From: an uncultured Bacilli bacterium
Lineage (GTDB): Bacteria; Bacillota_I; Bacilli_A; RF39; UBA660
Reading direction: 5' to 3'
Assembly (NCBI GenBank): GCA_947632325.1
Contig: CANROU010000002.1
Span: 43,840-107,839 of the forward strand
Length of the DNA stretch: 64,000 nucleotides
Program-made: the position numbers and the translations under genes
The notes under the pieces: generated by a model
Told to the model about the DNA's origin: nothing
Database searches by the model: none
What the model saw: the letters and a program-made list of their open reading frames with translations, nothing else
In this document: positions 2,288 to 38,629 of the stretch, in pieces
Position numbering within the stretch: position 1 is the first letter of the stretch
Layout of the letters: each line of letters opens with the position of its first letter

Positions 2288-2338
2288 AATTTGCTGTTTA
2301 TTAATAAAACTTTATTTATGGTCAATACTAATAATATA

Positions 2339-2400
2339 TTGACAATCATTTGTCAAATTAACATAAAATTATTGTCTAATCATTATTTTTTTGTTATACT
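2339..2400 (+). promoter_or_regulatory. Candidate sigma-A promoter (TTGTCT-16-TGtTATACT) preceded by a 7-bp perfect inverted repeat TTGACAAtcatTTGTCAA
   Basis: Sits in the only sizeable intergenic gap (145 bp) of the block, ~35 nt upstream of the AGGAGG RBS of the small pilin-like gene. Confidence 0.35.
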
Positions 2401-2432
2401 AAATTTATAATAATATAGGAGGGATGTTATTT

Positions 2433-2651
2433 ATGAAAGCAGCAACAGGAGAGTTGAGTTTAACAGTAATTACAATTGTAGCGATAGGAGCGGTTATTGC
2501 CTTTTTCTGGTTGTTATGGGATAACGTGATTAAACCAAAAATCACTAATAGTTTTAATGATACGGAAACAGAGCATGAAGAAAAATGGCCAGCTATGAAG
2601 GATACTGATTCTAACTCTATTAGCGTTGGTGAATATACATTTACAATTTAA
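2433..2651 (+). CDS. Small membrane protein, possible Flp-like/minor pilin-like subunit
   Basis: AGGAGG RBS 8 nt upstream of ATG at 2433. MKAATGELSLTVITIVAIGAVIAFFWLL is a short charged N-terminus, a Gly, then one hydrophobic helix; the rest is hydrophilic. No canonical G/FTLIE or G/xxxxEY signature. Confidence 0.3.
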   Translation: MKAATGELSLTVITIVAIGAVIAFFWLLWDNVIKPKITNSFNDTETEHEEKWPAMKDTDSNSISVGEYTFTI

Positions 2652-2690
2652 TTGCTAAAGATTATTAAGAGTAAAAGTGGGTGAGTATGA

Positions 2691-3239
2691 ATGAAAGAAG
2701 CCATTGGTGGTACTTTGACGATATACCTCATTCTTATTTTCATGTTGATTCTTTCTGGTTATATGGCTTTTTCGGTAAATTATACTAAGGCCTTTCGTGT
2801 TAAAAATGAGGTTATCAATTTAATTGAACAGTATGAAGGTCATACACCTAATGCCCAGAGCAAAATTAAGGACTACTTGAGGAATATGAATTATTCGACT
2901 GCTGGTAATCCAGTAATAGCTTTTGAAAATTCAGTTAGAAAAGATAATAAATATCAGTATACTAACTGCCAAGATGGTTATTGTGTAAGGTGTTGGGATA
3001 CTAATAATAAATTGAATGCTGATAATGCTGATGGTATTGAGAATGGTATTTATTATACCGTATATACCTATGTTAATATTGATATACCTATTTTTAATAA
3101 GTTTTTCCCTGGCATGAAACTTTTTAGAGTTAGTGGGGAAACTAAAACCATATACGGTAATAAAAAATGTGAAGATTCTTCATCTTCACCGTTTGGTAAA
3201 ATTATTGATAGCTTGACGGAAAACGCCCTGCGTTATTAA
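2691..3239 (+). CDS. Membrane-anchored extracellular protein, TadE-like/pseudopilin-like N-terminus
   Basis: Single N-terminal TM (TLTIYLILIFMLILSGYMAF) followed by TKAFRVKNEV, resembling TadE N-termini. Cys-containing C-terminal domain. Confidence 0.3.
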   Translation: MKEAIGGTLTIYLILIFMLILSGYMAFSVNYTKAFRVKNEVINLIEQYEGHTPNAQSKIKDYLRNMNYSTAGNPVIAFENSVRKDNKYQYTNCQDGYCVRCWDTNNKLNADNADGIENGIYYTVYTYVNIDIPIFNKFFPGMKLFRVSGETKTIYGNKKCEDSSSSPFGKIIDSLTENALRY

Positions 3240-3271
3240 CGGTATGGTATTAATATGAAAGGGATGGTTCT

Positions 3272-4258
3272 ATGAACGTAATTGTTGCTAATCAACAACG
3301 TGAAGTATTATCTGGTTTAGATATTGATATTATTAAAAATGTTACGGGAGAATATGATGCTGATGAATTAGTCAGTATGTTCCGTAATTTCTTTTTTGGT
3401 AGAATGATTTTGGATGTTACAGCTATCAAGGAGTACCAAAATATAGCTAATTTACAAAAAATAGCTACTAATTTAGATGCAGAAAAAATCATTTTATTAT
3501 TACCTAATATACCAGAGATGTCTTCATCTAGTTATTTATCTAAAATTATATCAATGGGATACTATAATTTTACAACTAATTTAGATGGTGTTAAATATTT
3601 ATTAGATCATCCAAATAGTTATAAGGATGTAGCACATATTCAACAATTAAATGAAATGCCTGATACTCCTATGGATAGGGTATCTAGTTCCGTTGGCGAT
3701 AGTTATGTTCTTGGTATAAAAAATGTTACTGAGCAAGCTGGTAGTACAACTTTAATTTATATGTTAAAAAAAGAGTTGGAGCATACATTTTCTATGCAAG
3801 TTACAGCTATGGAAATAGGTAAGAATGACTTTGGATACTTTAATGAAAAAAATATGATTTCAGTAACTAAGGATAACTTTGCTGTTGAATTATTGAAACA
3901 TAAAGAATCTGATGTTATTTTAGTAGATTTAAATGATTCAAATATCGATGAGACTTGCCATAGTGTATTATACTTAGTAGAACCAACAACTATTAAACTT
4001 AATAAATTGTTAAGAAGAAGTAGAATGGCACTTGAAAAATTAAAAGGCAAAAAAATTGTTTTAAATAAAAGTTTATTAACTAATAGCGATGTTATGGATT
4101 TTGAATATGAGGCTCATGTAAAAGTGTTCTTCAATATGCCACCAGTTAATGAAAGAAACAGAAATAATGTTTTTCATGGCTTATTAGCTAAACTTGGCAT
4201 AATAGATAAAGGCTCAGGTGGTAAAGAAGAAAAAAGTGGTTTTTTTAAATTCTTTTAA
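3272..4258 (+). CDS. CpaE/TadZ-like protein: receiver-like N-domain plus ParA/MinD-fold domain with degenerate Walker A (alternative: VirC1-like ParA)
   Basis: VLGIKNVTEQAGSTTLIYML aligns to the deviant Walker A of MinD/ParA (V.G.KGGVGKTT) but lacks the lysines. VILVDLNDS corresponds to the Walker B-like strand. The first 110 aa resemble a CheY-like fold without the phospho-acceptor Asp. Confidence 0.4.
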   Translation: MNVIVANQQREVLSGLDIDIIKNVTGEYDADELVSMFRNFFFGRMILDVTAIKEYQNIANLQKIATNLDAEKIILLLPNIPEMSSSSYLSKIISMGYYNFTTNLDGVKYLLDHPNSYKDVAHIQQLNEMPDTPMDRVSSSVGDSYVLGIKNVTEQAGSTTLIYMLKKELEHTFSMQVTAMEIGKNDFGYFNEKNMISVTKDNFAVELLKHKESDVILVDLNDSNIDETCHSVLYLVEPTTIKLNKLLRRSRMALEKLKGKKIVLNKSLLTNSDVMDFEYEAHVKVFFNMPPVNERNRNNVFHGLLAKLGIIDKGSGGKEEKSGFFKFF

Positions 4259-4344
4259 TTTTTAATTGACAGTAAACAAATGAAAATTAATTGACTTATA
4301 TAAGAAAAACAAATAAAATAAAGTTAAGAAAGTGAGGTTTTTGT

Positions 4345-4704
4345 ATGAATTTGTTTCAGATATTAGTAGATGTTGGTGATGCCTGTGGTGGATTAACACC
4401 CGTTGTTAAATTTATTAAACATGGTGTATTTCCAATTATTCAAATAGGTATTCCTATTATTTTGATTGTTATGGGAAGTATTGATTTAGGTAAAGCTGTT
4501 TTATCAAGTGATGAAAAAGCTATTAAAGCTGCTCAAGGAATGCTTGTAAAACGTTGTATTGCCGCAGTAGCCGTATTCTTTGTGGTTACTATTGTAAGCT
4601 TATTGATGGGACTATTTAGTAATCTTAATTCTACTGACAAAGGTGAAGGAACAGATACTACATCTTGGGGTGAATGTTGGGACGCTGCATTTATTAATAA
4701 ATAA
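4345..4704 (+). CDS. VirB2/TrbC-like T4SS pilin candidate (two-helix membrane hairpin)
   Basis: 119 aa with TM - DLGKAVLSSDEKAIKAAQGMLVKRCIAA - TM topology. Shares a ~65-aa module with the C-terminus of the next gene. Followed by a strong intrinsic terminator. Confidence 0.4.
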   Translation: MNLFQILVDVGDACGGLTPVVKFIKHGVFPIIQIGIPIILIVMGSIDLGKAVLSSDEKAIKAAQGMLVKRCIAAVAVFFVVTIVSLLMGLFSNLNSTDKGEGTDTTSWGECWDAAFINK

Positions 4705-4719
4705 TAATATATAAAAGTT

Positions 4720-4742
4720 AAGCTCTTTAAGAGCTTTTTTTC
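4720..4742 (+). terminator. Rho-independent terminator after the short pilin-like gene
   Basis: AAGCTCT-tta-AGAGCTT stem followed by TTTTTT. Confidence 0.6.
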
Positions 4743-4824
4743 TTGTTTTCATAAAATTATTTTGCTATTTGTCTTATTATTTGATATACTTGTTATAGTG
4801 TAGATATCTGTTAGGAGAGATAGA

Positions 4825-6318
4825 ATGAAGTTATTAAAAAAAGTAAGTTATTGTTTAGTATTGGCTTTTATCGCTTTTTGTGGATTTACTTTAAATGTAA
4901 AAGCGGATGATAAGTTTGCAATGTGTACTTATAAATATAATGATACATCTGTTGGTAATAGAACTTTAACTCTTGTATATAGAAATAAGGAATTTTATTT
5001 ATTAGCTGATACGGGAAATCCTAATCACTATTGGAGAGATACGGCGTCATCCTTTAAGCTGTTTGATAAATTAAAAATTGATATGTCTTATAAAAAAATA
5101 GATGAAATTTGTCCAAATAACATTCAAGTAAATGGATATGTTGATGATTACTCACAATTGTGTTGGGGAGAAATATGTAAAGATAGCATTAGATATGATT
5201 TATCTTTAAGTGGTAGTGATTATTTGACCTTTTTATCCAATCTTAGTTGTACATATAAACGGTCTCAAGAGGATATGCCTGATCTTACTTTGGGGTATGT
5301 TGACGGTTATGTGCAATACGAAATAATTTCATTCTTAGGTGGAAGTGATGGCGAAAGAAATACTAAACAACTTGGCATAGTTTATGCTGATGATGCTAAA
5401 AAGCTTTATGGATTTGGAGCAGAAAAAAATGGTGGAGCGTATCTAGATTATGAAGCGTTACAAGCATATAAAGAAGCTGGCTTAATAGGTGGTAATTGTC
5501 CCAACTATTTAATTTATAATCCTGACTTAGGCTTTTATGTTTCCAAGATTCCAAGCATAGACAGTAAAAAAATAGAATTATTGCGTGCTACTGCCGTTGT
5601 CAATCCTGCTACTTATTATTATTATGAAATTGGGGCTTCTGCAAAAAATTGTCCCACTGATTATAGTGATACTATTAATGAGCATATAGGGATTTTAACA
5701 AACACAGATAGCTTAATAAAAGAACGCATACAAGATGGTAAATTAGATTCACAGGCTTATGATGAATATTATGGACAAAGAACGAAGGCAAACAACGATT
5801 TAAACAGTTTTGGAAATTGTGTTGACAAGGATTTAAAAGAAACCTTAGAAAAATTAATACAGTCAGTTGGTAGCAACTTAGATCAAGCGGTAGCTGCTTC
5901 TACTATTATGACCTCAAGTGAAAAAACTGTAGCAAATAATAATAGTAATGCCATTAAAACATCTGCTAAACAGATGGCAACTTTGGATGATCCAATAGAT
6001 ATATCAGGGAATATTTCTTGTGATTCGCTATTAGGAAGTCCAAATGATTCAGGCAGTTTATACAGTTTAATTAATACTTTGTTTAGATATATTCAAATTA
6101 TTGCTCCTATTTTATTGATCGTGTTTGGTGGTGTTGATTTTGGTAAAGCTGTTTTATCATCTGATCAAGAGGAATTAAAAAAGGCTCAAGCTAGGTTTAT
6201 TAAAAGATGTATTGCTGCCTTAGCATTATTCTTTTTACCGTATATGGTTAAGTGGTTAATGGAACAAATAATGACTCATACAGGTATTATAGATTGGGAC
6301 GCTTGTATGCCTAAATAG
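4825..6318 (+). CDS. Secreted Cys-rich protein (about 430 aa ectodomain) fused to a C-terminal VirB2-like membrane-hairpin module; candidate pilus-tip adhesin
   Basis: Signal peptide (MKLLKKVSYCLVLAFIAFCGF). C-terminus IAPILLIVFGGVDFGKAVLSSDQEELKKAQARFIKRCIAALALFF...W..C is paralogous to the 4345 gene product. Confidence 0.4.
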   Translation: MKLLKKVSYCLVLAFIAFCGFTLNVKADDKFAMCTYKYNDTSVGNRTLTLVYRNKEFYLLADTGNPNHYWRDTASSFKLFDKLKIDMSYKKIDEICPNNIQVNGYVDDYSQLCWGEICKDSIRYDLSLSGSDYLTFLSNLSCTYKRSQEDMPDLTLGYVDGYVQYEIISFLGGSDGERNTKQLGIVYADDAKKLYGFGAEKNGGAYLDYEALQAYKEAGLIGGNCPNYLIYNPDLGFYVSKIPSIDSKKIELLRATAVVNPATYYYYEIGASAKNCPTDYSDTINEHIGILTNTDSLIKERIQDGKLDSQAYDEYYGQRTKANNDLNSFGNCVDKDLKETLEKLIQSVGSNLDQAVAASTIMTSSEKTVANNNSNAIKTSAKQMATLDDPIDISGNISCDSLLGSPNDSGSLYSLINTLFRYIQIIAPILLIVFGGVDFGKAVLSSDQEELKKAQARFIKRCIAALALFFLPYMVKWLMEQIMTHTGIIDWDACMPK

Positions 6319-6333
6319 AAAGGAGTTGATATC

Positions 6334-8103
6334 ATGATACTAGCAGCAAAAGCGGGAATGTTTGGTAACATATGGCGTGGTATATGTATATTTTTAGATA
6401 GAATAGTATATCAACTTTTGGTTTGGGTATATGAGATTTTCTTTACGGTTGCTGAACAAAATAATTTGTTTAATCAAGATACTTATCTATATATATTTCG
6501 TCGTATATTTATGATTTTAGGCATTTTTATGTTATTCAAATTATCTATTTCATTATTACAGATTATAGTATCACCAGATGAAAATAACAAGCAACAAAGC
6601 AAAATGGGACAAGTCATTGGTAGAGTTATTGTTGTGGTGGTTTTGATTTTTGCTTTAGTTCCGCAACCATCATTAAATAATTCAGATCCAAATTCGTTGG
6701 AGGCAAAAATAAAAACCGATGGATTGCTATTTGGTACACTTAATTCACTCCAAGAACGTGTATTGAGAGGCAATTTCTTGGGTAAGTTGATTTTAGGATC
6801 TTCAGCGGCAGAGACTTCTTCAAAACAAGGTACAGCAATACAAGAGGGTGGAAATCAGATTGCTTCAACTATTTTTAGAGCATTCTTTTATCCTAATAAG
6901 TCTTGTGGACAAATTGCAATCTATGATGATTGGAGTAATAATGCAACAGACGTACAAGATCTAATGGATCTTTACCAAGAAACGTGTAGTAATAAAGAAT
7001 ATGCTTTCGAATATATGGGATTAGTTTCTACATTAGCTGGCGGTTTTGCGGTTTTTATGATTTTCTCATTCACACTAGATGTAGCTATTCGACTTTTTAA
7101 GTTATTGTTTTTAAGATTAATCGCCCCTATTCCAGTTATAAGTTATATAGACCCTAAATCAGCAAAAGATGGCGCTTTCGCTAACTGGGTTAAAGTTACT
7201 ACTAGCACTTATTTAGAATTATTTATTCATCTAATTATTATTTTTTTAATGTTATTTTTAGTACGAGAAGTAATTCAAAGTGAATTCTTTAAAAACATTT
7301 TTACTTTTGATAATAATTTTTCAATTATAACAGTAATTGCTGGGGTATTTATCATTTTAGGTATATTCTTTTTTGCTAGACAAGCTCCTAAATTTATAAG
7401 AGATATCTTTGGTATTAAAGGTGGAAGTGGTAGCATTGGACTTGCCGGTATGTTAGGAGGTGCTGCTGCCTTAGTAGGTGGTGCTGGATTAGCTGGAGCA
7501 GGAGCAGCTATGCTTCAGAATAGTATGGCTTCTAGTGATGCTGCTGCTCAAGGCAAACAGTTTAGCGGTGGTTGGCGTGCTGGTAGTGATTTGGCCGCTC
7601 AAATTAGAACAGGCGATAAAAACGCTAGAGGTGGTCTTATCAATAGAGCACAACAAGCAGCACAAAGAAGGGCTGGAGCTAGACAAGCTGATCAACTTGG
7701 GTTAACTAGAGATAATGTTCAATTCGCTAAAGATAAAATGTATGAAACTCAAAATCAAGAAACTGAAGCAACAGATGCTTATAATAGATTTATTAATAGC
7801 GACGTTTATAAAAGCAATCCTGCAGGAGAGGAAGCACATCGTCAAACTTTATATAATAATATGGTGTCTGCTCAGGCTGCAGCTGCTAAAGCTAAAAGTA
7901 ATTATGAAAAAGCCAGTAAGGGAAGAGAACAACTTGCTGGGCCAGAAACTTTACAAGATAGATATGGTCCTAGATATTTTGCTAGGCGCCGTTTAAATCG
8001 AGAAGAGCGTAGACGTAATGCTAGACGTCCAGTTGGATCTCATTATACTGAAGATGCTGATCATGCACGTGGAAGTGATAGATTTGATCAACCACCAATT
8101 TAA
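6334..8103 (+). CDS. VirB6/TrbL-like polytopic channel protein with Gly/Ala-rich and Gln/Arg/Ala-rich hydrophilic C-terminal tail
   Basis: Six or more TM helices in the first 360 aa, then GGSGSIGLAGMLGGAAALVGGAGLAGAGAA and a ~200 aa low-complexity tail. Architecture and position match ConG/TcpH/VirB6 family members. Confidence 0.45.
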   Translation: MILAAKAGMFGNIWRGICIFLDRIVYQLLVWVYEIFFTVAEQNNLFNQDTYLYIFRRIFMILGIFMLFKLSISLLQIIVSPDENNKQQSKMGQVIGRVIVVVVLIFALVPQPSLNNSDPNSLEAKIKTDGLLFGTLNSLQERVLRGNFLGKLILGSSAAETSSKQGTAIQEGGNQIASTIFRAFFYPNKSCGQIAIYDDWSNNATDVQDLMDLYQETCSNKEYAFEYMGLVSTLAGGFAVFMIFSFTLDVAIRLFKLLFLRLIAPIPVISYIDPKSAKDGAFANWVKVTTSTYLELFIHLIIIFLMLFLVREVIQSEFFKNIFTFDNNFSIITVIAGVFIILGIFFFARQAPKFIRDIFGIKGGSGSIGLAGMLGGAAALVGGAGLAGAGAAMLQNSMASSDAAAQGKQFSGGWRAGSDLAAQIRTGDKNARGGLINRAQQAAQRRAGARQADQLGLTRDNVQFAKDKMYETQNQETEATDAYNRFINSDVYKSNPAGEEAHRQTLYNNMVSAQAAAAKAKSNYEKASKGREQLAGPETLQDRYGPRYFARRRLNREERRRNARRPVGSHYTEDADHARGSDRFDQPPI

Positions 8104-8123
8104 AAGGGAGAGTGTGATACTAT

Positions 8124-8444
8124 ATGAATGATATGTATTTAATACCTGCTAATACAAATAGAGGTAAATTAATTTTAGGAATATTTACATCTTTTGATTT
8201 GATATTATTTGGAGTGGGAGTATTTATTACTATAATATTAATGATGTTTGTTCCAATGACTAGTACAATAGTGACGGTTCTAATATTAGCACCGGCTTTG
8301 GTTTCAGCATTATTGGTAGCTCCTGTTCCTTATTATCATAATATTTTAACGGTTGTAAGAGAATTGATTGAGTTTTTTAACAATAGACAAAAATATGTTT
8401 GGAAAGGTTGGTGTAGTGGTTATGGCGACGATAGCAACAAGTAA
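8124..8444 (+). CDS. VirB3-like small membrane protein (PrgI/ConD-like)
   Basis: 106 aa, two hydrophobic helices, immediately upstream of and overlapping the VirB4 N-terminal gene, as in VirB3-VirB4 pairs. Confidence 0.35.
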   Translation: MNDMYLIPANTNRGKLILGIFTSFDLILFGVGVFITIILMMFVPMTSTIVTVLILAPALVSALLVAPVPYYHNILTVVRELIEFFNNRQKYVWKGWCSGYGDDSNK

Positions 8445-8970
8445 ATATACTGAAGATTGGTTACCCGTTGTTGGTATTCAAAATGGTTTAATTGAATTAC
8501 AAAATCATATGAAGGTAACAGGTGTTAAGATAGTACCACGTAATATTTTTATCTTGGATGCTGATGCTCAAAATAATGTTTTAATAAGTTTAAAAAATTT
8601 CTACAATATGATAGATTTTGAGTTTTGGTTAGTGGTAGCGGATAGGCCAGTGGATATTTCGGTTTATTTATCACAACTACAATTGCTATATAATAATACA
8701 CAATCACCAGTTATTCGTAAATTGATTAATCAAGATATTCAAAAGGGTAATACATTTATGAGTAATAATATTGTAGATACAGAATATTACATCTTATTTA
8801 AAGATAAAAATATTGATGCTATACAGAAGAAAATACGTTTATTAATTAATGGTTTAGCAGGCTGTGGATTAAGTGCTTCGCAAACCAGTAATGATGATTT
8901 ACGAGTAATTTTAGATAATTTCTTAAATGGGGGACAAACAACTGAATTTGGGACGGTGTTGCCAATATGA
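8422..8970 (+). CDS. VirB4/TrbE N-terminal domain encoded as a separate gene
   Basis: EDWLPVVGIQNGLIELQNHMKVTGVKIVPRNIF...EFWLVVADRPVDIS matches the conserved N-terminal region of VirB4/CagE/TrbE. Ends TGA inside an ATGA overlap with the ATPase gene. The longer ORF-track start at 8368 is less likely than ATG 8422. Confidence 0.55.
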   Translation: MATIATSKYTEDWLPVVGIQNGLIELQNHMKVTGVKIVPRNIFILDADAQNNVLISLKNFYNMIDFEFWLVVADRPVDISVYLSQLQLLYNNTQSPVIRKLINQDIQKGNTFMSNNIVDTEYYILFKDKNIDAIQKKIRLLINGLAGCGLSASQTSNDDLRVILDNFLNGGQTTEFGTVLPI

Positions 8971-10760
8971 CAAATAATAGATTAAAAGCACAATTAGCTC
9001 CTAAGGGTTTACAATTTAATGCTAGTGATTTCTTTATTAGTGATAAATACGCTACTATTTTATCAGTTGTATCATATCCTAAATATATTGCTCCAGGATA
9101 TTTATCATCACTTACTAATATGCCAGGTATTAAGGTAGTAATTAAGCATATTCCGGTTCCTTTTCAAACCATTTCTAAGATGTTAAATAAACAAATTGCT
9201 GATTTACGTGTTAGGTATCAAGAAGAAAGAGATCAAACAATGCAGGAGAGAATTAGACAAGATGCTGATTCATTGGAACAATTTACTTCTATGTTAGCAT
9301 CATCACAAGCCCGTATTTTTGATTTTCAAATGCACATTATGATAACGGCTGATAGTAAAGAAGAGTTGGAGCTTAAGAAAACTAATGTTAAGAATTATTT
9401 AGATGCTATGGAATTAAAAGCTATTTCTCTTCGTTTTGAACAGGAAAAGGTTTTGAAATCCATTCTACCAATTTTTCCTAAGCAAGAAATCGAAGATAGG
9501 ATAGGAACCCCAATTCCATCTATAACTGTTGCGGCTATGTATCCGTTTATATTTGATAGTATCAAAGATCCAGGATTATCTACTTTATTAGGTGTTGATT
9601 TTTCTGGTGGTGTTATTTTATTTAATCAATTCTTATATAAAATAAAAAAAGAAAATAATCGTAATAATGCTAATTTAATTATTTTAGGTACTTCTGGATC
9701 AGGTAAATCAACAGCTGCTAAGTTGATGTTAAGAAGTCATATTCGTAATGGTTGTCAAATTGTAGCCATCGATCCTGAAAATGAACTAGAAGATATGACA
9801 CGCCTTTATGGTGGAGATGTTATCGATCTTGGTAAAGGTGGCGAATTTGGGATGATTAATCCCTTAGAAGTGGTAATTGATGCTGATGAAGAAGAATTGA
9901 AACAGGGTCTTGGTTATACTGTTTTAACTAGAACGTTACAATTTTTAAAGGCCTTTATGAAGTATTATGATCCATCTATTGAAGAAGATGTCCTAACTTT
10001 ATTTAGTGAGGTTGTACAAGACACTTATAAACGTTTTCAAATTGATTTTAATACAGATTTTACCAAATTAACTTCTAAAGATTATCCAACTTTTTCGGAT
10101 GTTTATGCTACTATCAATGGTTGGTTAACTTCTATGACGGAACAAACACATGAAAGAGATATTATGGAACGTTTAGAATTAAAAATTCGACCTCTTACTA
10201 AAGAATTGCGTTTCTTCTTTGATAGTCATACAACGATTACTCCTCAAAGTGATTTTATCGTTTTTAATATCAGGGAACTTATGAATGCAGAGGTTAATAT
10301 CCGTAATGCTTTGTTTTTCAATATTTTGAAATATGCTTGGGGTTTATGTTTGGATACAGATGTGGATACAGTTTTAATGGTTGATGAAGCTCATGTTTTA
10401 TTGGGACAAAATAATGTCTTGGGGGCAGATTTTTTAGCGCAAGTACAGCGTCGTGCTCGTAAATATAACACAGGAACGATTATTATTACACAACAACCAA
10501 GTGATTTCTGTGATCCATCGGTTATTACTCAAGGAAAAGCTATTTTTGATAATGCTTCTTATTACTTAGTAATGGGTTTAAGAAAACAAGCTGTAGAGGA
10601 TTTATCTTTACTTATAGATTTAAATGATAATGAAAAGGATAGCATTAAACGTTATTCACAAGGTGAGGCTCTATTTGTTTGTGGTAATCGTCGAATGCGT
10701 ATTAATGTTATTGTAACCCCAGAAGAGTTAGATTCGTTTGGTAGTGGGGGAGGATTTTAA
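8967..10760 (+). CDS. VirB4-type T4SS ATPase (C-terminal catalytic part)
   Basis: Walker A LGTSGSGKST, Walker B-like VLMVDEAHVLL, and arginine-rich AQVQRRARKYNTG motif. Size and order are typical of TcpF/ConE/PrgJ. Confidence 0.8.
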   Translation: MTNNRLKAQLAPKGLQFNASDFFISDKYATILSVVSYPKYIAPGYLSSLTNMPGIKVVIKHIPVPFQTISKMLNKQIADLRVRYQEERDQTMQERIRQDADSLEQFTSMLASSQARIFDFQMHIMITADSKEELELKKTNVKNYLDAMELKAISLRFEQEKVLKSILPIFPKQEIEDRIGTPIPSITVAAMYPFIFDSIKDPGLSTLLGVDFSGGVILFNQFLYKIKKENNRNNANLIILGTSGSGKSTAAKLMLRSHIRNGCQIVAIDPENELEDMTRLYGGDVIDLGKGGEFGMINPLEVVIDADEEELKQGLGYTVLTRTLQFLKAFMKYYDPSIEEDVLTLFSEVVQDTYKRFQIDFNTDFTKLTSKDYPTFSDVYATINGWLTSMTEQTHERDIMERLELKIRPLTKELRFFFDSHTTITPQSDFIVFNIRELMNAEVNIRNALFFNILKYAWGLCLDTDVDTVLMVDEAHVLLGQNNVLGADFLAQVQRRARKYNTGTIIITQQPSDFCDPSVITQGKAIFDNASYYLVMGLRKQAVEDLSLLIDLNDNEKDSIKRYSQGEALFVCGNRRMRINVIVTPEELDSFGSGGGF

Positions 10761-10842
10761 TTATGAGGACTAACTAGCTAACACAAGTTAGCTAGTTTCA
10801 TAGTTAAAATATTTAATGCAAGTCAGTAGGTGGTGATGATTA

Positions 10843-13119
10843 ATGGCATATAAGGCTAATAGAGGCAATAACCAAAATAATTTGCAACAATCTAATCAAG
10901 ATGATACTTCTAATAGCGAAGCTGCTAAAACAGCTAAACAGCAAGAAAATCGTGATAATACTAAAAACGTTGCTAAAAATGTAGGTTCTATGGCTTTACA
11001 AGGTATGGGAGTACCTGCTCCTATAGCAAAAATGGCTACTAATAAAATAGCTAAGAATCCTATAGTGAATAAGGCCTTAAATAAAGCTAGTGACAAAATA
11101 AATAAAAATCCACTTGCTAATAAGGCTATTAATCAAATGGCTAACAGCAAATTAGATGCTGCGGGAAAATCTTCTAACAACCCAGGTTCATCTAGTAAAG
11201 ACTCACAAAATGGTACGAAAAATGCTGAAGGTCGTAATGGACAAAGTACATCTAATAATTCTAGGTCTAATAGTAATCAGCGAAATTCATCACCAAATAG
11301 ATCTAATGATAAAAAAGATGGAGAAGGTAGTTCTAAGGTATCAGGATCGGTTGAGGGTAGTAGTCTTATACCTAAAGCTCTTAAAATAAAATTGATATTA
11401 ATTGGTGCGGCAGCCGCTGCTGGATTATTCCTAATTATTGTTGTTTTTGCTGTTATTTCTAGTTTCAATCCCTTTTTTGGTGTTGATAAATCATCTGGTA
11501 AATCAACTGATTTAGGGGAATTTGATATTGATCCTGATTCTGATGAAGGTAAGTTTTATAATAAAGTTAATGAAGTAGCTGCCGAATACAATACAAACGG
11601 GACACCATTTGATCCTAGACTTATTGCTTCTGTTTTTACGACAATTAATAATTATGATGATAATTATAGTTATGAGGAAGCTACCAATGATATTGAGACA
11701 TTAGCTAATTTTATGGTGGAAAACACTATAACTTGTCAATATGGGGAAGAAACGCAGCATGTTGTTGATAAACCTTGTCCAGAGGGCTATAATGAGGTAA
11801 GTAGAACAAGAGATATTAATGAAAAAAAATTTAAGGATAAATTAAAAACTGAATTTTTAAAAAATAAAGTTAAAACATTACCAGAGGATCAAATGGAATC
11901 ATTAGTTACGGATATATATCAATTAATTGAAGATTATAAGGAATTAATTGGGGAGAATCAAACAGTTTTAGCTGCTGGTGGTATGTGTACTTATAATGTT
12001 GATAACAAAACTATTTCTAATATCAAAGTTCGTCTTCTACAATGTGATGATGATAATCGGGGAGAACCAATTGAAGGTGAAGAATTGATTGATTTTGAAA
12101 AATATATCATGGGCGTTACTTATGCTGAAAATGGAAATGGACCACTAGAGGCTATGAAAACGGAAGCTATCGCGGCACGTAGTTTCGCTCTTACTAGAGC
12201 TAAAGATATGGGGGGAAATTTTAATATTAAATTACAAGAAGAAAATGGTGAAATGGTTTTATCTATTCGTAGTTGTACAGAAGATCAAGTATATTGTGAT
12301 CCAGATAAAGGTTGTTGGTCCAATGATAAAAATGCTAATGGTACTGTTCACTCGGGACAACAAGCAGGTAAACCTTATTCTAAGCCTCCTATACCAATGG
12401 ATTCACCTATTCGTAAGGCCATAGAAGAAACGAAAGGAACGGTTTTAGTAGATGATAGTGGGAACATTGTTATGACAAGTTATACTGATACTAATCATCA
12501 AAACTGGAACAGTTTAGCACAAGCAGGAAATGATTGTTTCCAAATATTAAAAAAGGATTATCCAAATGCCAGTAGATTACAGGCTTCTTGTTCTTTAGGA
12601 GCTGCCACTGGTGAATTTTCAAGTTGGAAACAATATGGTGCGCCATGGAGTTCTACTAAATTAGGCCCTGGGGGAGATACTATTGCGGAGTCGGGCTGTT
12701 TGGCAACTTCTATTGCTATTCAAATTGCCAGATCAGGTACTAGATTATTCATAGATCCTTTTAATCCAGGTGTTTTAGTAACGACAATGGCTGCTCATGG
12801 TGGCTTTGTTGGCAGCAGTATGCAATGGAATAATGCTTGGCAATTTGCTGCACCTGATTGGACTTTGGCTTGTGATTCTCGTAGTAGTAATAGTTGTTCT
12901 CTAAGTGGTACTAAGGCCAATAAAACTAATCAAATTGCTAGTTACTTAAATCAAGGCTATTATCCAGTGGTAGCTGTTAAAAATGAAGGGCATTGGGTAG
13001 CAATCGATCACGTTGAAGGTGATAATGTTTACATGTTTGATCCAGGTAGTAGTTCTACTTTATTATGGGATCAATATAGCTACACTGGTTCTAATAGAAT
13101 TTTGCTATTTAGAGGGTGA
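10843..13119 (+). CDS. T4SS-associated cell-wall hydrolase: Asn/Lys-rich repeat N-terminus, TM anchor, SpoIID/LytB-like domain, CHAP/NlpC-P60-like Cys-His peptidase domain
   Basis: Repeats AKNPIVNKALNKASDKINKNPLANKAINQ. TM at IKLILIGAAAAAGLFLIIVVF. LEAMKTEAIAARSFALTRA resembles the SpoIID signature (EALKAQAVAARTYAL). C-terminus has ESGCLATSIAIQIAR ... EGHWVAIDHVEG, a Cys/His dyad. Confidence 0.55.
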   Translation: MAYKANRGNNQNNLQQSNQDDTSNSEAAKTAKQQENRDNTKNVAKNVGSMALQGMGVPAPIAKMATNKIAKNPIVNKALNKASDKINKNPLANKAINQMANSKLDAAGKSSNNPGSSSKDSQNGTKNAEGRNGQSTSNNSRSNSNQRNSSPNRSNDKKDGEGSSKVSGSVEGSSLIPKALKIKLILIGAAAAAGLFLIIVVFAVISSFNPFFGVDKSSGKSTDLGEFDIDPDSDEGKFYNKVNEVAAEYNTNGTPFDPRLIASVFTTINNYDDNYSYEEATNDIETLANFMVENTITCQYGEETQHVVDKPCPEGYNEVSRTRDINEKKFKDKLKTEFLKNKVKTLPEDQMESLVTDIYQLIEDYKELIGENQTVLAAGGMCTYNVDNKTISNIKVRLLQCDDDNRGEPIEGEELIDFEKYIMGVTYAENGNGPLEAMKTEAIAARSFALTRAKDMGGNFNIKLQEENGEMVLSIRSCTEDQVYCDPDKGCWSNDKNANGTVHSGQQAGKPYSKPPIPMDSPIRKAIEETKGTVLVDDSGNIVMTSYTDTNHQNWNSLAQAGNDCFQILKKDYPNASRLQASCSLGAATGEFSSWKQYGAPWSSTKLGPGGDTIAESGCLATSIAIQIARSGTRLFIDPFNPGVLVTTMAAHGGFVGSSMQWNNAWQFAAPDWTLACDSRSSNSCSLSGTKANKTNQIASYLNQGYYPVVAVKNEGHWVAIDHVEGDNVYMFDPGSSSTLLWDQYSYTGSNRILLFRG

Positions 13120-13928
13120 AAAAAATGAAGAAATCTTATAAAATATTAATTGCTATTATTTTGATTTATGCTGTTATTATGATTATATTTGTAGGGATTC
13201 CTGCTATTAGAAAAAATAATAATGAAAAAAAAGGCACTTATCTTTTAGTAGGTAATGTTTCAAGATGGGAATATGTTAATAATACTTGGCAAAGTATTAC
13301 AGACATTAATAGTGTTCTTAGTAATAATTTATTTAAATGTTATGATGATGGTAATTATTTAGGTGAATTTGAGGTGCAGTATTATAATGATATATGGTAT
13401 TTGTTTGATAAAAACAATGATTCAAGAAAATTATCTAGTAGTTTTCTAGCCACCTCTAGTGCTAAAGAAATAGAGGTTATAGATCTTAATAATATCATGA
13501 CGAACCTTGATCAAGTAGATTTATCTTATGTCAATAAAGTATTAGAAGATAATTCTCTTCCTAGTGCTACTTTAACTACCTTAGGACTTCAAAATAAAAT
13601 AACTTTTGATTTTGATGGTGACAAACAAGAGGAGATGTTGTATACTATTTCTAATTGGTACGACGGACAGTCGCAAGATAAGATTTATTCTTTTGTCTTT
13701 TATGTTGATAATAATAATATTCAAATATTAAGAGAAGATATTGTTGATAAGATTGATATGTATGATAATCATCAATATCCTATTGTTGCTATTTTAGATA
13801 CTAATAATGATCATAAATATGAATTTATTATTAGCGAAGATAAATTAATGCAAGGTATGGAACAATGTCATATCATGTATCAATTAAAAAAAGGCCAATT
13901 TAATATAATTAAATCATGCGATGAGTAG
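13116..13928 (+). CDS. Membrane-anchored extracytoplasmic protein, possible VirB8/TcpC-like T4SS component
   Basis: Single N-terminal TM then ~235 aa ectodomain. Overlaps the upstream gene by 4 nt. Assignment is positional only. Confidence 0.25.
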   Translation: MKKMKKSYKILIAIILIYAVIMIIFVGIPAIRKNNNEKKGTYLLVGNVSRWEYVNNTWQSITDINSVLSNNLFKCYDDGNYLGEFEVQYYNDIWYLFDKNNDSRKLSSSFLATSSAKEIEVIDLNNIMTNLDQVDLSYVNKVLEDNSLPSATLTTLGLQNKITFDFDGDKQEEMLYTISNWYDGQSQDKIYSFVFYVDNNNIQILREDIVDKIDMYDNHQYPIVAILDTNNDHKYEFIISEDKLMQGMEQCHIMYQLKKGQFNIIKSCDE

Positions 13929-13941
13929 GGGAGGAATTTAA

Positions 13942-16149
13942 ATGAAATTGAAATTTCGGGCAGATCCACAAGATATATTAATCTTTGTTCTCTTTGCTAT
14001 ATTTCTTTTATATGTAGTAGCTATTGGGGTGGTTAATCTATCTACTTTAGCTGTTGAGGGACATTTTTATGGTTTAAATCCTTTAGTAGCATTTACACCT
14101 ACTTATATAAAAGCTACCATTGTATTTTATATTTTATTTCTCGCTGGTATTTTTGTTAGTGTTAGTTCTTATTTCTTTGAACGAGAAAAAGGGGTAGGAA
14201 TAACTACTGATAAAAAAGATAAAGGGTATAGTCGGTGGGCTAAAGATAAAGAAATTAAGGAAAGTAAAGATGTTGAGAAGGTTCTTATTTCAGATGAGAA
14301 TTCAACAGTCGCTGGTACTCCTTTGATTTATAAAGGGAATGAAATCTGGGTTGATAATGGTGAAAATCATACTTTAGTTATCGGTGCCACTGGTTCTGGT
14401 AAGACGCAATCAATTGTTTTACCGACAGTTAAAATCTTAGCTAAACATAAAGAATCGATGATTATTACTGATCCTAAAGGGGAAATTTATGAGCAAACAT
14501 CACAGATGTTAAGAGAAAGGGGATATCAGATTTTACTTTTGAATTTCCGTGATCCACAAGAAGGTAATGCTTGGAATCCCTTATCTTTGCCTTATGAAAT
14601 GTATAAAAATGGTCATCAGGACAAGGCTATTGAGTTATTAGATGACTTGGCTCTTAATATTTTGTATGAGGAAAACAGCGGTAATGCCGATCCCTTTTGG
14701 GAGAAAACATCAGCCGATTATTTCTCGGGTATAGCACTTGGTTTATTTGAGGATGCTAAACCAGAGGAAATTAATATTAATAGTATTAGTTTGATGACTA
14801 CAGTTGGTGAAGAAAAATTTGGAGGATCTACATATGTTAAAGAATATTTTAATAGTAAAGATCCAGCTAGTGCTGCAGCTATTAATGCTTCTAGTACTAT
14901 TATGGCTCCAAATGAAACCAAGGGTAGTATTTTGGCGGTCTTTAAACAAAAGATAAAATTATTTGCATCCCGTGAAAATTTATCCGAGATGTTATCGCAT
15001 ACAGATATAGATTTAGAGACAATTGGTGAAAAGCCAACAGCTTTATTTGTGGTTATTCAAGATGAAAAGACAACATATCATTCTTTAGTAACTATTTTAT
15101 TGAAGCAAGTTTATGAAACATTGATTGCTAATGCTCAAAAACATGGAGGAAAACTTCCTGTTCGTACGAATTTCTTATTGGATGAATTTGCCAACATGCC
15201 ACCATTAAAGAATGTTACAACGATGATTACTGCTGCTCGAAGCCGACAAATTCGTTTTACGATGATTATTCAAAATTTTGCTCAGTTAGATCAGGTTTAT
15301 GGTAAAGAAAATGCTGAAACCTTAAGAGGTAACTGTGGAAATTTAATTTATTTAATTACCACCGAATTAAAAGCTCTAGAAGAGATTAGTAAGATGTGCG
15401 GTGAAGTAAAATCGAAAAAAGATGATAAAACAGCTTCAACACCACTTGTTACGGTTAGTGATTTACAACGTATGAAAGAAAATGAAGTTATTATACTAAG
15501 ATTACGACAACAACCTTTTAAAACAAAATTTACTCCTGATTATAAGATAGACTGGGGTAAGAAATATCCTAAAGCTGAATTTCCTCATCGAGAGAAAATG
15601 CCTGTGGCAACTTTTGATATTCGTGAGTTTGTTAAAGAGATGAAACGTCAAAAATTGTTTAGTATGATGGAAGAAAACAACGGTCAAAATGGTGGTGGTG
15701 TGATGAATGCCACTGGTGGAATGCCACCTTTCAGTCCACCAAGTATGTTTAATATTAATCAAGAGCCAATGCCACCACTTAATCAAACTACAAATAATAC
15801 TAAAACATCTTCTGCTCCTGCAGATAAATTTGATGTGGATGATTTAGTAAGAAAAATCGACCAAAAGATAGCGGAATTAGAAGCCGAAGAAAAGAGAAAT
15901 AAACAACAAGCTGAGGCTTTTAATACTAAGATGCAACCTAGTGAGATTAATGCCGTAGAAGTTAAACCTAAAACAGAGGTAATATCTAACGAAAATCAGG
16001 TATTAAATGATAGAAAAACAGCTATAGAAGATACTACTTCCGTGGTTAAAGAAGAACCTAAGGCTATTATTCACACTGAAAACTTGCTATCTAATGATCC
16101 TGAAGAAGAAGATGATGATAATTTTTTTGATGACTTCTTTGATGATTAA
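13942..16149 (+). CDS. Type IV coupling protein (VirD4/TraG/TraD family) with acidic C-terminal tail
   Basis: Two N-terminal TMs. Walker A VIGATGSGKTQS, Walker B LFVVIQDE, and signature NFLLDEFANMPPL. C-terminal 250 aa has a Pro/Met/Asn-rich linker and ends EEEDDDNFFDDFFDD. Confidence 0.8.
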   Translation: MKLKFRADPQDILIFVLFAIFLLYVVAIGVVNLSTLAVEGHFYGLNPLVAFTPTYIKATIVFYILFLAGIFVSVSSYFFEREKGVGITTDKKDKGYSRWAKDKEIKESKDVEKVLISDENSTVAGTPLIYKGNEIWVDNGENHTLVIGATGSGKTQSIVLPTVKILAKHKESMIITDPKGEIYEQTSQMLRERGYQILLLNFRDPQEGNAWNPLSLPYEMYKNGHQDKAIELLDDLALNILYEENSGNADPFWEKTSADYFSGIALGLFEDAKPEEININSISLMTTVGEEKFGGSTYVKEYFNSKDPASAAAINASSTIMAPNETKGSILAVFKQKIKLFASRENLSEMLSHTDIDLETIGEKPTALFVVIQDEKTTYHSLVTILLKQVYETLIANAQKHGGKLPVRTNFLLDEFANMPPLKNVTTMITAARSRQIRFTMIIQNFAQLDQVYGKENAETLRGNCGNLIYLITTELKALEEISKMCGEVKSKKDDKTASTPLVTVSDLQRMKENEVIILRLRQQPFKTKFTPDYKIDWGKKYPKAEFPHREKMPVATFDIREFVKEMKRQKLFSMMEENNGQNGGGVMNATGGMPPFSPPSMFNINQEPMPPLNQTTNNTKTSSAPADKFDVDDLVRKIDQKIAELEAEEKRNKQQAEAFNTKMQPSEINAVEVKPKTEVISNENQVLNDRKTAIEDTTSVVKEEPKAIIHTENLLSNDPEEEDDDNFFDDFFDD

Positions 16150-16197
16150 TGAAAAACAATAGAGCAATCTTTGTTTTTTTTCATATAATAATAAGAG

Positions 16198-16500
16198 GTG
16201 GATCAAATGAGGGAAATTACAGTGGCTGATTTAAAACGCTTAATGGCTCAAAAGCCCCTTATGATAATTGATATCCGTGATTATTATCAATTTCAACTAG
16301 GGAATATTCCTACAGCTAGATGTATACCTATGAATTTTTTATTAACTAACGACAGTAATTATTTAAATAAAGGAACTACATATTATATTTATTGTGAATT
16401 TGGAAATAGAAGTAAACAAGCCTGTCAAGAGTTGTCACAAAAAGGATATGATGTTGTCAATATAGTTGGTGGTTATCAAGAATACAAAGCTAATTTGTAA
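16198..16500 (+). CDS. Single-domain rhodanese-like sulfurtransferase
   Basis: Active-site loop YCEFGNRS (Cys-X4-Arg), ~100 aa. Confidence 0.65.
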   Translation: MDQMREITVADLKRLMAQKPLMIIDIRDYYQFQLGNIPTARCIPMNFLLTNDSNYLNKGTTYYIYCEFGNRSKQACQELSQKGYDVVNIVGGYQEYKANL

Positions 16501-16589
16501 AGTATTATCAAATGATAATACTTTTTATTTGACACTATCTTTAAAAAAATTGTAACTAATGAATAAATATGATATGATAATAATGATAG

Positions 16590-17693
16590 GTGGAGATTAT
16601 AATGAATCAAGATTTAAAGAAAAGATTATTACTTATTGGTGCTATATTAGGAGGAATAATTGTTGTAATTACTATTATTGCGCTTATAGTTCATTTATTT
16701 ATTGGTGGCAGAATGTCTTATGATAAAGTTTTAGCTACAATGAAGGAAGCTGCTGTAAAATATTATGATGTACATTCTCAATTGCTTCCTAAAGAAGGTG
16801 AAGATAGTGTAGATGCATCTACTCTAGCTGAAACGGAATTTATGAAACCCTTAGCTAAAATAGTACCTAAGGGAAATAGCTGCACTGGTAAAGTGGTTGT
16901 TCGTTTAATTGATGATCATAAATATTCTTATACACCATATTTAGATTGTGGCAAAGATTATCAAACTATTGAATTATATAAAAAGATAACTGATAACAAA
17001 AATATTGTTACCTCATCTAATGGTTTATACCAAATTGGTGATGAGTATGTTTATCGTGGTGAAAATATTAATAATTATGTTCAATTACAAGATAGTATTT
17101 GGCGTATTACTAAAGTGACATCTAATCATGATATTCAATTGATTTTAGCTCAAAAAACTTCAAGTGATACATGGGATGATCGTTTTAATACTACTAAAAA
17201 CTATAATGCAGGTATTAATGATTACTCTGTAAGTAGAGTACGTGATTATCTTAAAAATCTCTATGAATCTAATACATTATTTGATGATAGTATCAAAGAT
17301 AAGTTAACACCATTTAATGCTTGCGTTGGTCATAGAGGTAGTGATGAGGCAGTAAATGATGGATCAATAGAATGTTCTACTACTATGGCTGGTGAAAAAT
17401 ATAGTCTATTACCATTAAATGAATATATTATGGCTAGTTTAGATTCTACATGTTCAAAACCAACGGATGCTCAATGCCAAAATTATAATTATTTAGCTTT
17501 TACGAGAAAATGGTGGACTATCACTGGTGATAAAAATAGTACTCATCAAGTATATGGTATAGACTCTGATGGTCAAATTAAGTTAAGTTCGGCTATGAGT
17601 ATGTTTGATATTCGGCCTATTGTTCGTTTAGCTAATAATGTTATGTACCAAAGTGGTGATGGTACTCTTGAAAATCCTTATCTTATAAAATAA
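16590..17693 (+). CDS. Membrane-anchored Cys-rich extracytoplasmic protein, unknown function
   Basis: N-terminal TM (LLLIGAILGGIIVVITIIALIVHLFIG), then 330 aa with 8 Cys. Good coding periodicity. Confidence 0.4.
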   Translation: MEIIMNQDLKKRLLLIGAILGGIIVVITIIALIVHLFIGGRMSYDKVLATMKEAAVKYYDVHSQLLPKEGEDSVDASTLAETEFMKPLAKIVPKGNSCTGKVVVRLIDDHKYSYTPYLDCGKDYQTIELYKKITDNKNIVTSSNGLYQIGDEYVYRGENINNYVQLQDSIWRITKVTSNHDIQLILAQKTSSDTWDDRFNTTKNYNAGINDYSVSRVRDYLKNLYESNTLFDDSIKDKLTPFNACVGHRGSDEAVNDGSIECSTTMAGEKYSLLPLNEYIMASLDSTCSKPTDAQCQNYNYLAFTRKWWTITGDKNSTHQVYGIDSDGQIKLSSAMSMFDIRPIVRLANNVMYQSGDGTLENPYLIK

Positions 17694-17719
17694 TTATATT
17701 TAATACTTGAGGTGAAAAC

Positions 17720-18799
17720 ATGAAAGTTCTTCTTTATACGGAAAATGAAAAATTATTTTCGAAATCAGGTTTAGGTAAAGCTATTCAACATCAAATGAAA
17801 AGTTTAGAATCCGTTGGGATTGATTATACTCTTGATATGGATGATGATTATGATATTGTTCATATTAATACTTATGGTCTTAAATCTATTGCTTTAGCTA
17901 AAATAGCCAAAGCTAATGGTAAGAAAGTAGTATATCATGCTCATTCGACAGAAGAAGATTTTAGAAACTCTTTTGTTTTCTCTAATCAAATTGCTCCTGT
18001 ATTTAAAAAATGGTTGATTTCTTGTTATAGTTTAGGAGATTATATTATAACGCCAACTCCTTACTCTAAAAAATTATTAGAGGGCTATGGTATCAAACAA
18101 CCTATTCAAGCTATATCTAATGGTATCGAATTATCTTTTTTTACCAAAAATTATGCTGATAGGCAAAAATTTAGACGTTTTTATAAATATAAAAGTACAG
18201 ATAAAGTAATAATAGGTATTGGATTATATTTAGAGCGCAAAGGTATTTTAGATTTTGTGGAATTGGCTAAACGTTTGCCACAATATAAATTTATTTGGTT
18301 TGGATATACTCCTAGTTATGCAATACCAGAGAAGGTAAGGAAGGCTGTTAAAACAAAATTACCAAATTTAAAATTTGCAGGATATGTAGAACCGGAAATG
18401 ATTCGTAGTGCTTTTTCTGGAGCTGATTTATATATTTTTCCAACTTTAGAAGAAACGGAAGGTATTCCTATTATTGAGTGTTGTGCGATGAAAACAAATG
18501 CTATTGTGCGTGATATTCCTGTTTTTGATGATTGGTTAATTGATGGCGTCAATATTTATAAAGCTAAAGATGTTGATGAATTTGAAGAAAAAATCAAAGG
18601 TATTTTAGAAAATAAATTACCATCTTTAGTAGAGGAAGGATATAAGGTAGCACTAGAGCGTGATATTAGGAAAGTAGGTTTAAAGTTAAAAGCAATCTAT
18701 GAGGAAGTATTAAAAATGCCTCCTAAGAAACATAATAAAAAGAAAAAGACTAATACTAAAGAGAATAAAAAAGTTGATATTATAAAAGCCGATTCATAA
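17720..18799 (+). CDS. GT4-family (GT-B fold) glycosyltransferase with Lys-rich C-terminal tail; possibly a membrane glycolipid synthase
   Basis: E-x7-E motif region TLEETEGIPIIECCAM. Gly-rich N-terminal SGLGKA. Basic tail KKHNKKKKTNTKENKK typical of membrane-surface-binding lipid glycosyltransferases. Confidence 0.6.
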   Translation: MKVLLYTENEKLFSKSGLGKAIQHQMKSLESVGIDYTLDMDDDYDIVHINTYGLKSIALAKIAKANGKKVVYHAHSTEEDFRNSFVFSNQIAPVFKKWLISCYSLGDYIITPTPYSKKLLEGYGIKQPIQAISNGIELSFFTKNYADRQKFRRFYKYKSTDKVIIGIGLYLERKGILDFVELAKRLPQYKFIWFGYTPSYAIPEKVRKAVKTKLPNLKFAGYVEPEMIRSAFSGADLYIFPTLEETEGIPIIECCAMKTNAIVRDIPVFDDWLIDGVNIYKAKDVDEFEEKIKGILENKLPSLVEEGYKVALERDIRKVGLKLKAIYEEVLKMPPKKHNKKKKTNTKENKKVDIIKADS

Positions 18800-22512: not shown

Positions 22513-22531
22513 TAGCTGAGGAGAAAAAGTT

Positions 22532-23056: not shown

Positions 23057-23092
23057 CCCGTTACTAGACCATATTAATCAAAGGAGAAATGT

Positions 23093-28936: not shown

Positions 28937-28952
28937 TATAATTCCCCCTTTC

Positions 28953-37563: not shown

Positions 37564-37567
37564 TATT

Positions 37568-38623: not shown

Positions 38624-38629
38624 TTATCA

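Follow-up and report, generated by a model that had tools for sequence, protein, structure and literature searches.

A membrane-anchored fusion of SpoIID-like and C39-like domains as the probable wall opener in a Gram-positive type IV secretion cluster

Gram-positive conjugation machines depend on enzymes that hydrolyze the cell wall. The closest described systems are those of ICEBs1, Tn916, pCF10, pIP501 and pCW3, whose respective hydrolases CwlT, Orf14, PrgK, TraG and TcpG are encoded in type IV secretion system (T4SS) operons, are tethered to the membrane and join a glycan-cleaving with a peptide-cleaving function. The glycan-cleaving modules of these enzymes are muramidase, SLT or glucosaminidase domains and their peptidases are of the NlpC/P60 or CHAP type. 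CwlT and Orf14 have been described as bifunctional proteins that combine a muramidase with a peptidase (PMC9324163). Here we analyze a 64,000-nucleotide stretch of DNA from an uncultured Bacilli bacterium (contig CANROU010000002.1, hereafter the window), in which a gene on the + strand (10843-13119) codes for a 758-aa bitopic protein with a SpoIID-like and a C39-like domain. We propose that this hydrolase probably serves a Gram-positive T4SS as its dedicated enzyme for opening the peptidoglycan.

Like the above enzymes, the hydrolase is encoded amidst T4SS genes, has a predicted membrane tether and is predicted to act on both glycan and peptide, and the role presumed to be common to all of them is the local opening of the wall for the secretion channel. 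It differs from them in that its glycan module is SpoIID-like, its peptidase is C39-like, and it additionally bears a disordered head of ~183 aa and an extra α/β ectodomain. No sequence relation to the CwlT/PrgK/TraG/TcpG class was detected in Pfam and NCBIfam scans, and the plasmids of PLSDB contained no relative of the hydrolase; judging from sequence, the resemblance to this class appears to be one of predicted function only, not of homology. The gene starts with an ATG, 7 nt upstream of which lies a Shine-Dalgarno-like GGTGGTG (10829-10835), and its product is identical to a protein (P0001) encoded on a 113-kb contig of an NCBI assembly. An original prediction had singled out this open reading frame as a T4SS wall hydrolase with SpoIID-like and CHAP-like domains behind an Asn/Lys-rich head; the frame is real, and both peptides quoted there were located in its translation (LEAMKTEAIAARSFALTRA, residues 435-453; NKALNKASDKINKNPLANKAINQ, residues 76-98).

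An AlphaFold2 model of residues 216-758, computed from an input alignment of 77 sequences, has a mean predicted local distance difference test (pLDDT) score of 90.2 and comprises three domains, of which the SpoIID-like domain is the most conserved (mean identity to homologs 49.5%), followed by a papain-like domain (38%) and a fast-evolving membrane-proximal domain (22%). The SpoIID-like domain spans residues 381-581 (11983-12585) and was recognized with PF08486, the profile of the hydrolase family and Foldseek. With PF08486, whose gathering cutoff is 23 bits, residues 416-536 scored 34.1 bits (E=4.4e-8), and 8/8 rescanned homologs likewise scored above this cutoff (28-48 bits). When searched against PDB, the family profile recovered the sporulation SpoIID structures of B. 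anthracis (4RWR, E=1.1e-8) and C. difficile (5I1T/5TXU, about 6e-5), with the family motif GVvYaE aligned onto GVVASEM and GVLAGEM, respectively; further weak stretches aligned to positions 143-194 and 291-320 of 4RWR. The same B. anthracis structure was the best Foldseek match of the ectodomain in PDB with a probability of 0.96, but with E=0.075 and a target-normalised TM-score of 0.26 over 139 columns.

The glutamate of this motif, Glu429 (12127-12129), is the putative catalytic residue by alignment to the GVxxxE motif of SpoIID and occurs without exception in the alignment (77/77 homologs), as do Tyr421, Gly424, Val425, Gln482 and Tyr484, with Arg446 being invariant or nearly so. By reading of the motif, the C. 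difficile glutamate aligned with it is presumably E101. Furthermore, four cysteines (Cys382, Cys485, Cys491 and Cys583) are present in 77/77 homologs and a fifth, Cys478, in 68/77; these could constitute a metal site or form disulfides, and they differ from the zinc site of C. difficile SpoIID (H134/C140/H145/C146). The scans with hidden Markov models (HMMs) detected no lysozyme, SLT or glucosaminidase domain in the protein, leaving the SpoIID-like domain as the sole recognisable glycan-cleaving module. These observations agree with the earlier attribution of the glycan-cleaving role to a SpoIID/LytB-type domain, for which we predict lytic transglycosylase activity.

The C-terminal residues 591-758 (12613-13116) correspond to the Cys/His peptidase that had also been foreseen, although its identification as a CHAP domain did not hold. 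Next after SpoIID, Foldseek matched the model to the C39 domains of PCAT1, LahT and ComA (target-normalised TM-scores of 0.46-0.57), and there was no CHAP or NlpC/P60 structure among the top 50 matches of the ectodomain. Neither the CHAP nor the NLPC_P60 HMM gave a match at E<=1 in the hydrolase, and BLASTP found no similarity between its peptidase domain and the CHAP domain of P0100, one of some homologs that do possess a true CHAP. PF03412 (Peptidase_C39) matched the hydrolase weakly (E=0.02-0.13, below cutoff), while among orthologous domains those of P0056 and P0102 scored 25.0 and 28.3 bits with PF13529 (cutoff 24) and that of P0032 matched PF11814; the terminal C39-like domain of P0032 is 37% identical to residues 591-758 (E=3e-33). 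With the CHAP label thus rejected by the HMM scan, the top 50 Foldseek matches and the BLASTP comparison, the profile matches of the homologs and the Foldseek matches of the model indicate a C39-like peptidase. The putative catalytic residues are Gln597 (12631-12633), Cys619 (12697-12699), His717 (12991-12993) and Asp733 (13039-13041), which are kept in 75, 75, 74 and 75 of the 77 homologs, respectively; among the homologs that deviate are P0100 and P0120, where another module replaces the C39-like domain. The domain has the Gln...Cys...His...Asp order, and its Foldseek matches indicate a papain-like fold. Listings of the catalytic domains of Gram-positive phage lysins include Peptidase_C39_2 (PMC8223927; bioRxiv 2026.04.25.720813).

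The hydrolase has one transmembrane (TM) helix (residues 184-212; 11392-11478), recognized by its Kyte-Doolittle profile, the top 19-mer of which reaches 2.92 at residue 184; there is no second comparable segment, and the homologs show a TM segment at the equivalent position. As the N-terminal flank is Lys-rich (IPKALKIKL) and the C-terminal flank acidic, we infer from the positive-inside rule an N-in/C-out topology, which would place the catalytic domains outside the membrane and the head inside. The head, a low-complexity region rich in Asn, Ser and Lys (residues 1-183; 10843-11391; Asn 32, Ser 26 and Lys 23 in residues 1-185), is the repeat-bearing Asn/Lys-rich N-terminus of the original prediction, whose cytoplasmic placement fits the flanking charges, and its length varies from 23 to about 250 aa among homologs. 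It contains a duplicated 14-aa unit, NKIAKNPIVNKALN (residues 67-80) and DKINKNPLANKAIN (residues 84-97), which is apparent on direct reading (11041-11133) and in which 9/14 positions are identical; one related copy is found in distant homologs of the P0056 type, such as KNLAKNPLTRKALSKAND in P0056 itself. Directly before this unit lies the motif ALQGMGVPAPIAKMA (residues 51-65; 10993-11037), which recurs in many homologs in the form (A/M)Q..G(V/I)P(K)P(I/V)A, with 1-2 copies in the heads of P0002, P0003, P0005, P0010, P0015, P0018, P0022 and others. As a speculation, the motifs of the head might dock to cytoplasmic parts of the T4SS.

Beyond the helix, the membrane-proximal extracytoplasmic α/β domain (residues 234-368; 11542-11946) is modelled with a pLDDT of about 93-97. 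It gave no match in Pfam, among PDB sequences, or in Foldseek searches of PDB and BFVD, and might possibly serve as a docking or spacer module.

We then considered the genomic context of the hydrolase, which lies in an operon-like run of genes on the + strand (2691-16149) and bears out the T4SS setting claimed for it. Immediately upstream is a VirB4-type ATPase split over two overlapping open reading frames, 8368-8970 (200 aa, TraC-like) and 8967-10760 (597 aa), which cover positions 113-277 and 293-890 of the 894 positions of NF045975 (VirB4_plasma, 358 bits); the ATPase also matches P-loop_TraG and CagE_TrbE_VirB. All homologous loci show the same division of VirB4 (~183 + ~595 aa), which is therefore a feature of the family rather than a frameshift. 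Two genes downstream of the hydrolase is a 735-aa VirD4/TraG-type coupling protein (13942-16149; PF02534 with E=6e-60, TraG-D_C and TrwB_AAD_bind). The order VirB6-like protein, small open reading frame, TraC-like protein, VirB4, hydrolase, ~260-aa protein and coupling protein is retained in the window and 12 other loci, the compared loci (L001-L010 and L050-L052) being from different metagenome-assembled genomes labelled Bacilli, Erysipelotrichaceae, Mycoplasmatota or Firmicutes. Between these loci the identities amount to 74-84% for VirB4 (91% over the truncated fragment of L004), 60-76% for the coupling protein and 58-79% for the TraC-like protein, as against 31-43% for the hydrolase and 24-34% for its 267-aa neighbor; the surface-exposed components therefore evolve much faster.

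The hydrolase family itself, which stems from uncultured gut bacteria, is large, with 126+ homologs at E-values down to 1e-127 that are nearly all unnamed or annotated as 'SpoIID/LytB domain-containing protein'. An exhaustive profile search yielded 675 clusters (50% identity) at E<=1e-30, a number that rises to 1785 when the threshold is relaxed to E<=1e-10, and the family is common in gut metagenomes, with one member indexed in 342 blocks of an assembly collection. The description of the architecture as unusual stands only in comparison with the characterised systems. SpoIID plus C39-like is the commonest architecture, around which there are several variants: P0032 has two C39-like domains, P0100 has CHAP and P0120 two M23 domains in place of the C39-like domain, P0102 combines VanY, CHAP, SpoIID and C39_2, and P0007 has an extra N-terminal peptidyl-prolyl isomerase (PPIase). 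That the SpoIID core stays the same while the peptidase modules are exchanged suggests the wall as the target of whichever peptidase occupies this position.

Based on this architecture and context, we propose that the TM-tethered hydrolase would be active only beside the assembling channel, where the C39-like peptidase, by means of Gln597, Cys619, His717 and Asp733, would first remove or cut stem peptides or cross-links, following which the SpoIID-like lytic transglycosylase would cleave the glycan strand with Glu429 as its general acid. The outcome would be a local gap in the wall for the T4SS. Three observations fit this order: CHAP and M23 modules can take the place of the peptidase, C39_2 occurs in phage lysins, and in engulfment SpoIIP acts before SpoIID. 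The C. difficile SpoIID, with catalytic E101, cuts only peptide-free glycan, which is produced by the amidase SpoIIP (PMC6221140). The need of SpoIID for peptide-free glycan hence translates into a testable prediction on the order of the two catalytic domains. The hydrolase and the SpoIID of the sporulation SpoIID-SpoIIM-SpoIIP machine share the region of the catalytic helix, the glutamate, a membrane anchor and an extracytoplasmic location, and in both peptide removal is coupled to glycan cleavage, by SpoIIP in trans in the case of SpoIID (PMC6221140) and presumably by the fused peptidase in the hydrolase. They differ in that the SpoIID-like domain is shorter (about 200 aa) and is found in a T4SS rather than a sporulation operon.

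Several points weigh against this proposal. TIGR02669 reached only 37.9 bits with the hydrolase against a cutoff of 83.3, with only positions 5-100 of the 270 in the model aligned, and because of this partial match and the low TM-score to 4RWR given above, the domain is a trimmed, divergent relative of SpoIID. The hydrolase itself falls under the cutoff of PF13529, and canonical C39 peptidases act on the leaders of proteins rather than on peptidoglycan. In none of the loci examined does a relaxase or integrase appear beside the cluster, so that conjugative DNA transfer is an assumption. We infer the enzymatic activities, along with their order of action, their bond specificity and the transfer of DNA by the T4SS.

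These points leave room for other readings of the two catalytic domains. Given that the closest solved folds to the C39-like domain are the double-glycine leader peptidases PCAT1, ComA and LahT, it could be a protein-processing protease on the outer face of the membrane, cleaving for instance a short double-glycine-type leader from the N-terminus of the T4SS pilin-like proteins, with the SpoIID-like domain alone acting on the wall. A pilin-like protein of 119 aa in the cluster does start with MNLFQILVDVGDACGG-LTPVV, and 5/9 such proteins (that of the window and 8 homologs) have a GG at a distance of 8-20 residues from the N-terminus, ahead of the first hydrophobic helix. The positive loop between the two hydrophobic helices would suggest an N-out topology. 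Yet the GG is missing in the other 4/9, the LSxxELxxIxGG-type leader consensus is not evident in the pilin-like proteins, some homologs have a classic wall peptidase, CHAP or M23, at the position of the C39-like domain, and C39_2 domains are found in phage lysins, so that we regard a leader protease as unlikely. Conversely, the peptidase could be the sole wall cutter, with the SpoIID-like domain serving as a glycan-binding or activating module devoid of transglycosylase activity. The SpoIID/LytB model is indeed matched in part only, a C-terminal GxGxSQxGA-like SpoIID motif is not evident in the hydrolase sequence, and B. subtilis SpoIID reportedly also stimulates SpoIIP. However, this is the most conserved domain of the protein, with Glu429 kept without exception and the neighboring motif residues near-invariant, as is expected of an active site, and a binding-only role is on this account decidedly unlikely.

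A further reading pertains to the system that the hydrolase serves. As the window also has sporulation and germination genes, and as the cluster lies amid housekeeping genes with no integrase or relaxase in sight, the protein might be a housekeeping or sporulation autolysin of a spore-forming host, for example its SpoIID, that merely happens to sit beside T4SS genes. This we consider very improbable: TIGR02870, the equivalog model of sporulation SpoIID, scored 26.2 bits, far below its cutoff of 234.75, and such a clear failure led us to reject the hydrolase as the host's SpoIID proper; with 758 aa, a long head and extra domains it is unlike the ~340-aa SpoIID; and its place between VirB4 and the coupling protein is constant in 12/12 loci examined although the genes on the upstream side differ. 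Lastly, the proposal of a dedicated T4SS wall hydrolase could be taken further by viewing the protein as a SpoIID-SpoIIM-SpoIIP machine in one polypeptide, recruited from the sporulation toolkit of the host for a T4SS of the relaxase-less mycoplasma type described below, and maybe vertically inherited. Here, its own TM anchor would replace SpoIIM, the part of SpoIIP in stripping or cutting stem peptides would be played by the C39-like domain (in variants by CHAP, M23 or VanY), and the SpoIID-like domain would degrade the glycan once denuded. We consider this derivation doubtful, and prefer the plainer reading of a wall-opening enzyme dedicated to the T4SS.

The neighboring VirB4 and VirB6-like proteins have their best NCBIfam matches in families of mycoplasma integrative and conjugative elements (ICEs), namely the Mbov_0397-type VirB4 and the MMCAP2_0566 type. 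To our knowledge, mycoplasma ICEs have no canonical relaxase nearby, as is the case for the present cluster, and we know of no wall hydrolase carried by them. Mycoplasmas lack a wall, whereas here the host has wall-synthesis genes, coding for a PBP2-type transpeptidase and a RodA/FtsW-family protein, and the cluster has a hydrolase and a VirB4 in two reading frames. The window (host GC content about 29%) also contains genes for two CotZ-like coat proteins, a SpoIIIAH-like protein, GerM (Germane) and a GerA/GerAC/spore-permease germinant receptor operon, these spore and germination genes being at 28505-29378 (- strand), 32370-32900, 33262-34203 and 36493-40066 (- strand). As both wall-synthesis and sporulation/germination genes are present, the host is evidently a walled endospore-former.

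Housekeeping genes, such as those for Lon, RNase R, SmpB, tRNA synthetases and RNase J, flank the cluster or lie elsewhere in the loci, and the genes upstream of the cluster differ between loci. A rhodanese gene is found 3' of the coupling protein gene in the window (16198-16500) and in 9 other loci. Since the same downstream neighbors recur across species, the cluster may be vertically inherited or domesticated rather than being part of a typical ICE. In terms of overall layout, the order of the ~13.5-kb cluster is kept over 12 loci and is mostly followed by a protein of ~370-395 aa and rhodanese, often with RmuC. In the window the rhodanese and a 367-aa TM, Cys-rich protein with a weak DUF6273 match (16198-17693) are swapped relative to most loci, where the coupling protein is followed by the ~395-aa protein and then rhodanese. 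The 367-aa protein was considered as a hidden relaxase and set aside, as this was without support from Pfam, NCBIfam or PDB and the protein looks like a TM-anchored, Cys-rich surface protein.

Literature searches joining SpoIID with type IV secretion or conjugation found one relevant remark: Iyer et al. 2017 (PMC5512222) noted SpoIID-like domains, in 'a small number of instances', among the polyvalent proteins that phages and conjugative elements encode. Like those proteins, the hydrolase would place a SpoIID-like transglycosylase domain in an apparatus of mobile-element type that breaches peptidoglycan; they are, however, large, multi-effector and probably injected, whereas the hydrolase is TM-anchored and fixed between VirB4 and the coupling protein. 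Along with a chlamydial SpoIID homolog that cleaves septal glycan outside sporulation (PMC6635528), they contradict the premise that SpoIID-type enzymes are otherwise confined to sporulation. The family described here would represent the same wall-opening job in a T4SS built from different parts, namely a SpoIID-type domain with C39-like, CHAP, M23 or VanY peptidases. If its members are active, secretion would join sporulation and chlamydial division among the known roles of SpoIID-type enzymes, and there would be a wall substrate to test for C39_2 domains. Activity would further make the hydrolase a simple marker gene for mycoplasma-ICE-like T4SSs in walled, spore-forming relatives of Mollicutes, which could help trace the adaptation of T4SSs to the loss or gain of the cell wall.

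The gene directly after that of the hydrolase, a position it always holds in the compared loci, codes for a TM-anchored, all-β protein of 267 aa (13125-13928, + strand). Its ATG lies 6 nt after the hydrolase stop, is preceded by a Shine-Dalgarno-like AGAGGGTG, and is more likely to be the start than the GTG at 13116 given in the list of open reading frames, which overlaps the hydrolase stop. The protein has two DxDxDG-like motifs (FDFDGDKQEE and LDTNNDHKYE), its AlphaFold2 model is all-β with a pLDDT of 77, and a word-index search returned 3 homologs. It was tested as a VirB8-like or SpoIIP-like partner, with no family match and with Foldseek matches that were weak, had low TM-scores and were of inconsistent folds. 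The VirB6-like membrane protein (6334-8103, + strand) matches NF045848 (MMCAP2_0566 family) with E=1.2e-8 and 34.7 bits against a cutoff of 90, and its homologs show a weak TrbL_4 match. The run begins with small membrane and pilin-like proteins. Of these, the 119-aa pilin-like protein (4345-4704) and the C-terminal part of a 497-aa protein (4825-6318), both on the + strand, were assigned on the basis of PF18895 (T4SS_pilin), which scored 24.5 bits, just below its cutoff of 26.6.

A two-helix T4SS-pilin-like module is common to the 119-aa protein and the C-terminal ~80 residues of the 497-aa one. In the former, the N-terminal segment is short, is not hydrophobic and ends in CGG, the Cys of which is conserved in most homologs; another conserved Cys lies near the C-terminus. 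This combination suggests that a leader may be cleaved and/or that a disulfide may join the two ends of the protein. Searches of PHROGs gave no match for the hydrolase or six neighbors, and a promoter and terminator scan of 2200-17800 gave counts not above those of shuffles. Within the 82 nt that separate VirB4 from the hydrolase is a perfect 11-bp inverted repeat, AACTAGCTAAC-ACAA-GTTAGCTAGTT (10772-10797), without a T-run after it, which could be an element for RNA processing or attenuation, or a protein-binding site.

Searches of other replicons gave no match for the hydrolase ectodomain in phage genomes, nor for the full-length protein by tblastn against PLSDB plasmids, where at E<=0.1 the C39-like domain alone matched a 434-aa protein on ~350-kb plasmids of B. 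thuringiensis. Of the records of this protein, 9 call it 'hypothetical' and 1 calls it 'amidase', a label without support from Pfam. For the window protein itself, an exact-sequence look-up of contigs had no entry. In one representative of the plasmid-borne protein (L053, plasmid ON016099.1, 31017-32321) the N-terminal domain is 28% identical to the C39-like domain, and the gene lies three genes downstream of one for a glucosaminidase-domain protein; the two may form a wall-hydrolase pair from separate genes. Back in the window, a few kb downstream of the T4SS, three successive genes (21976-23635) code for proteins with the type IV pilin N_methyl motif, resembling ComG-type pseudopilins.

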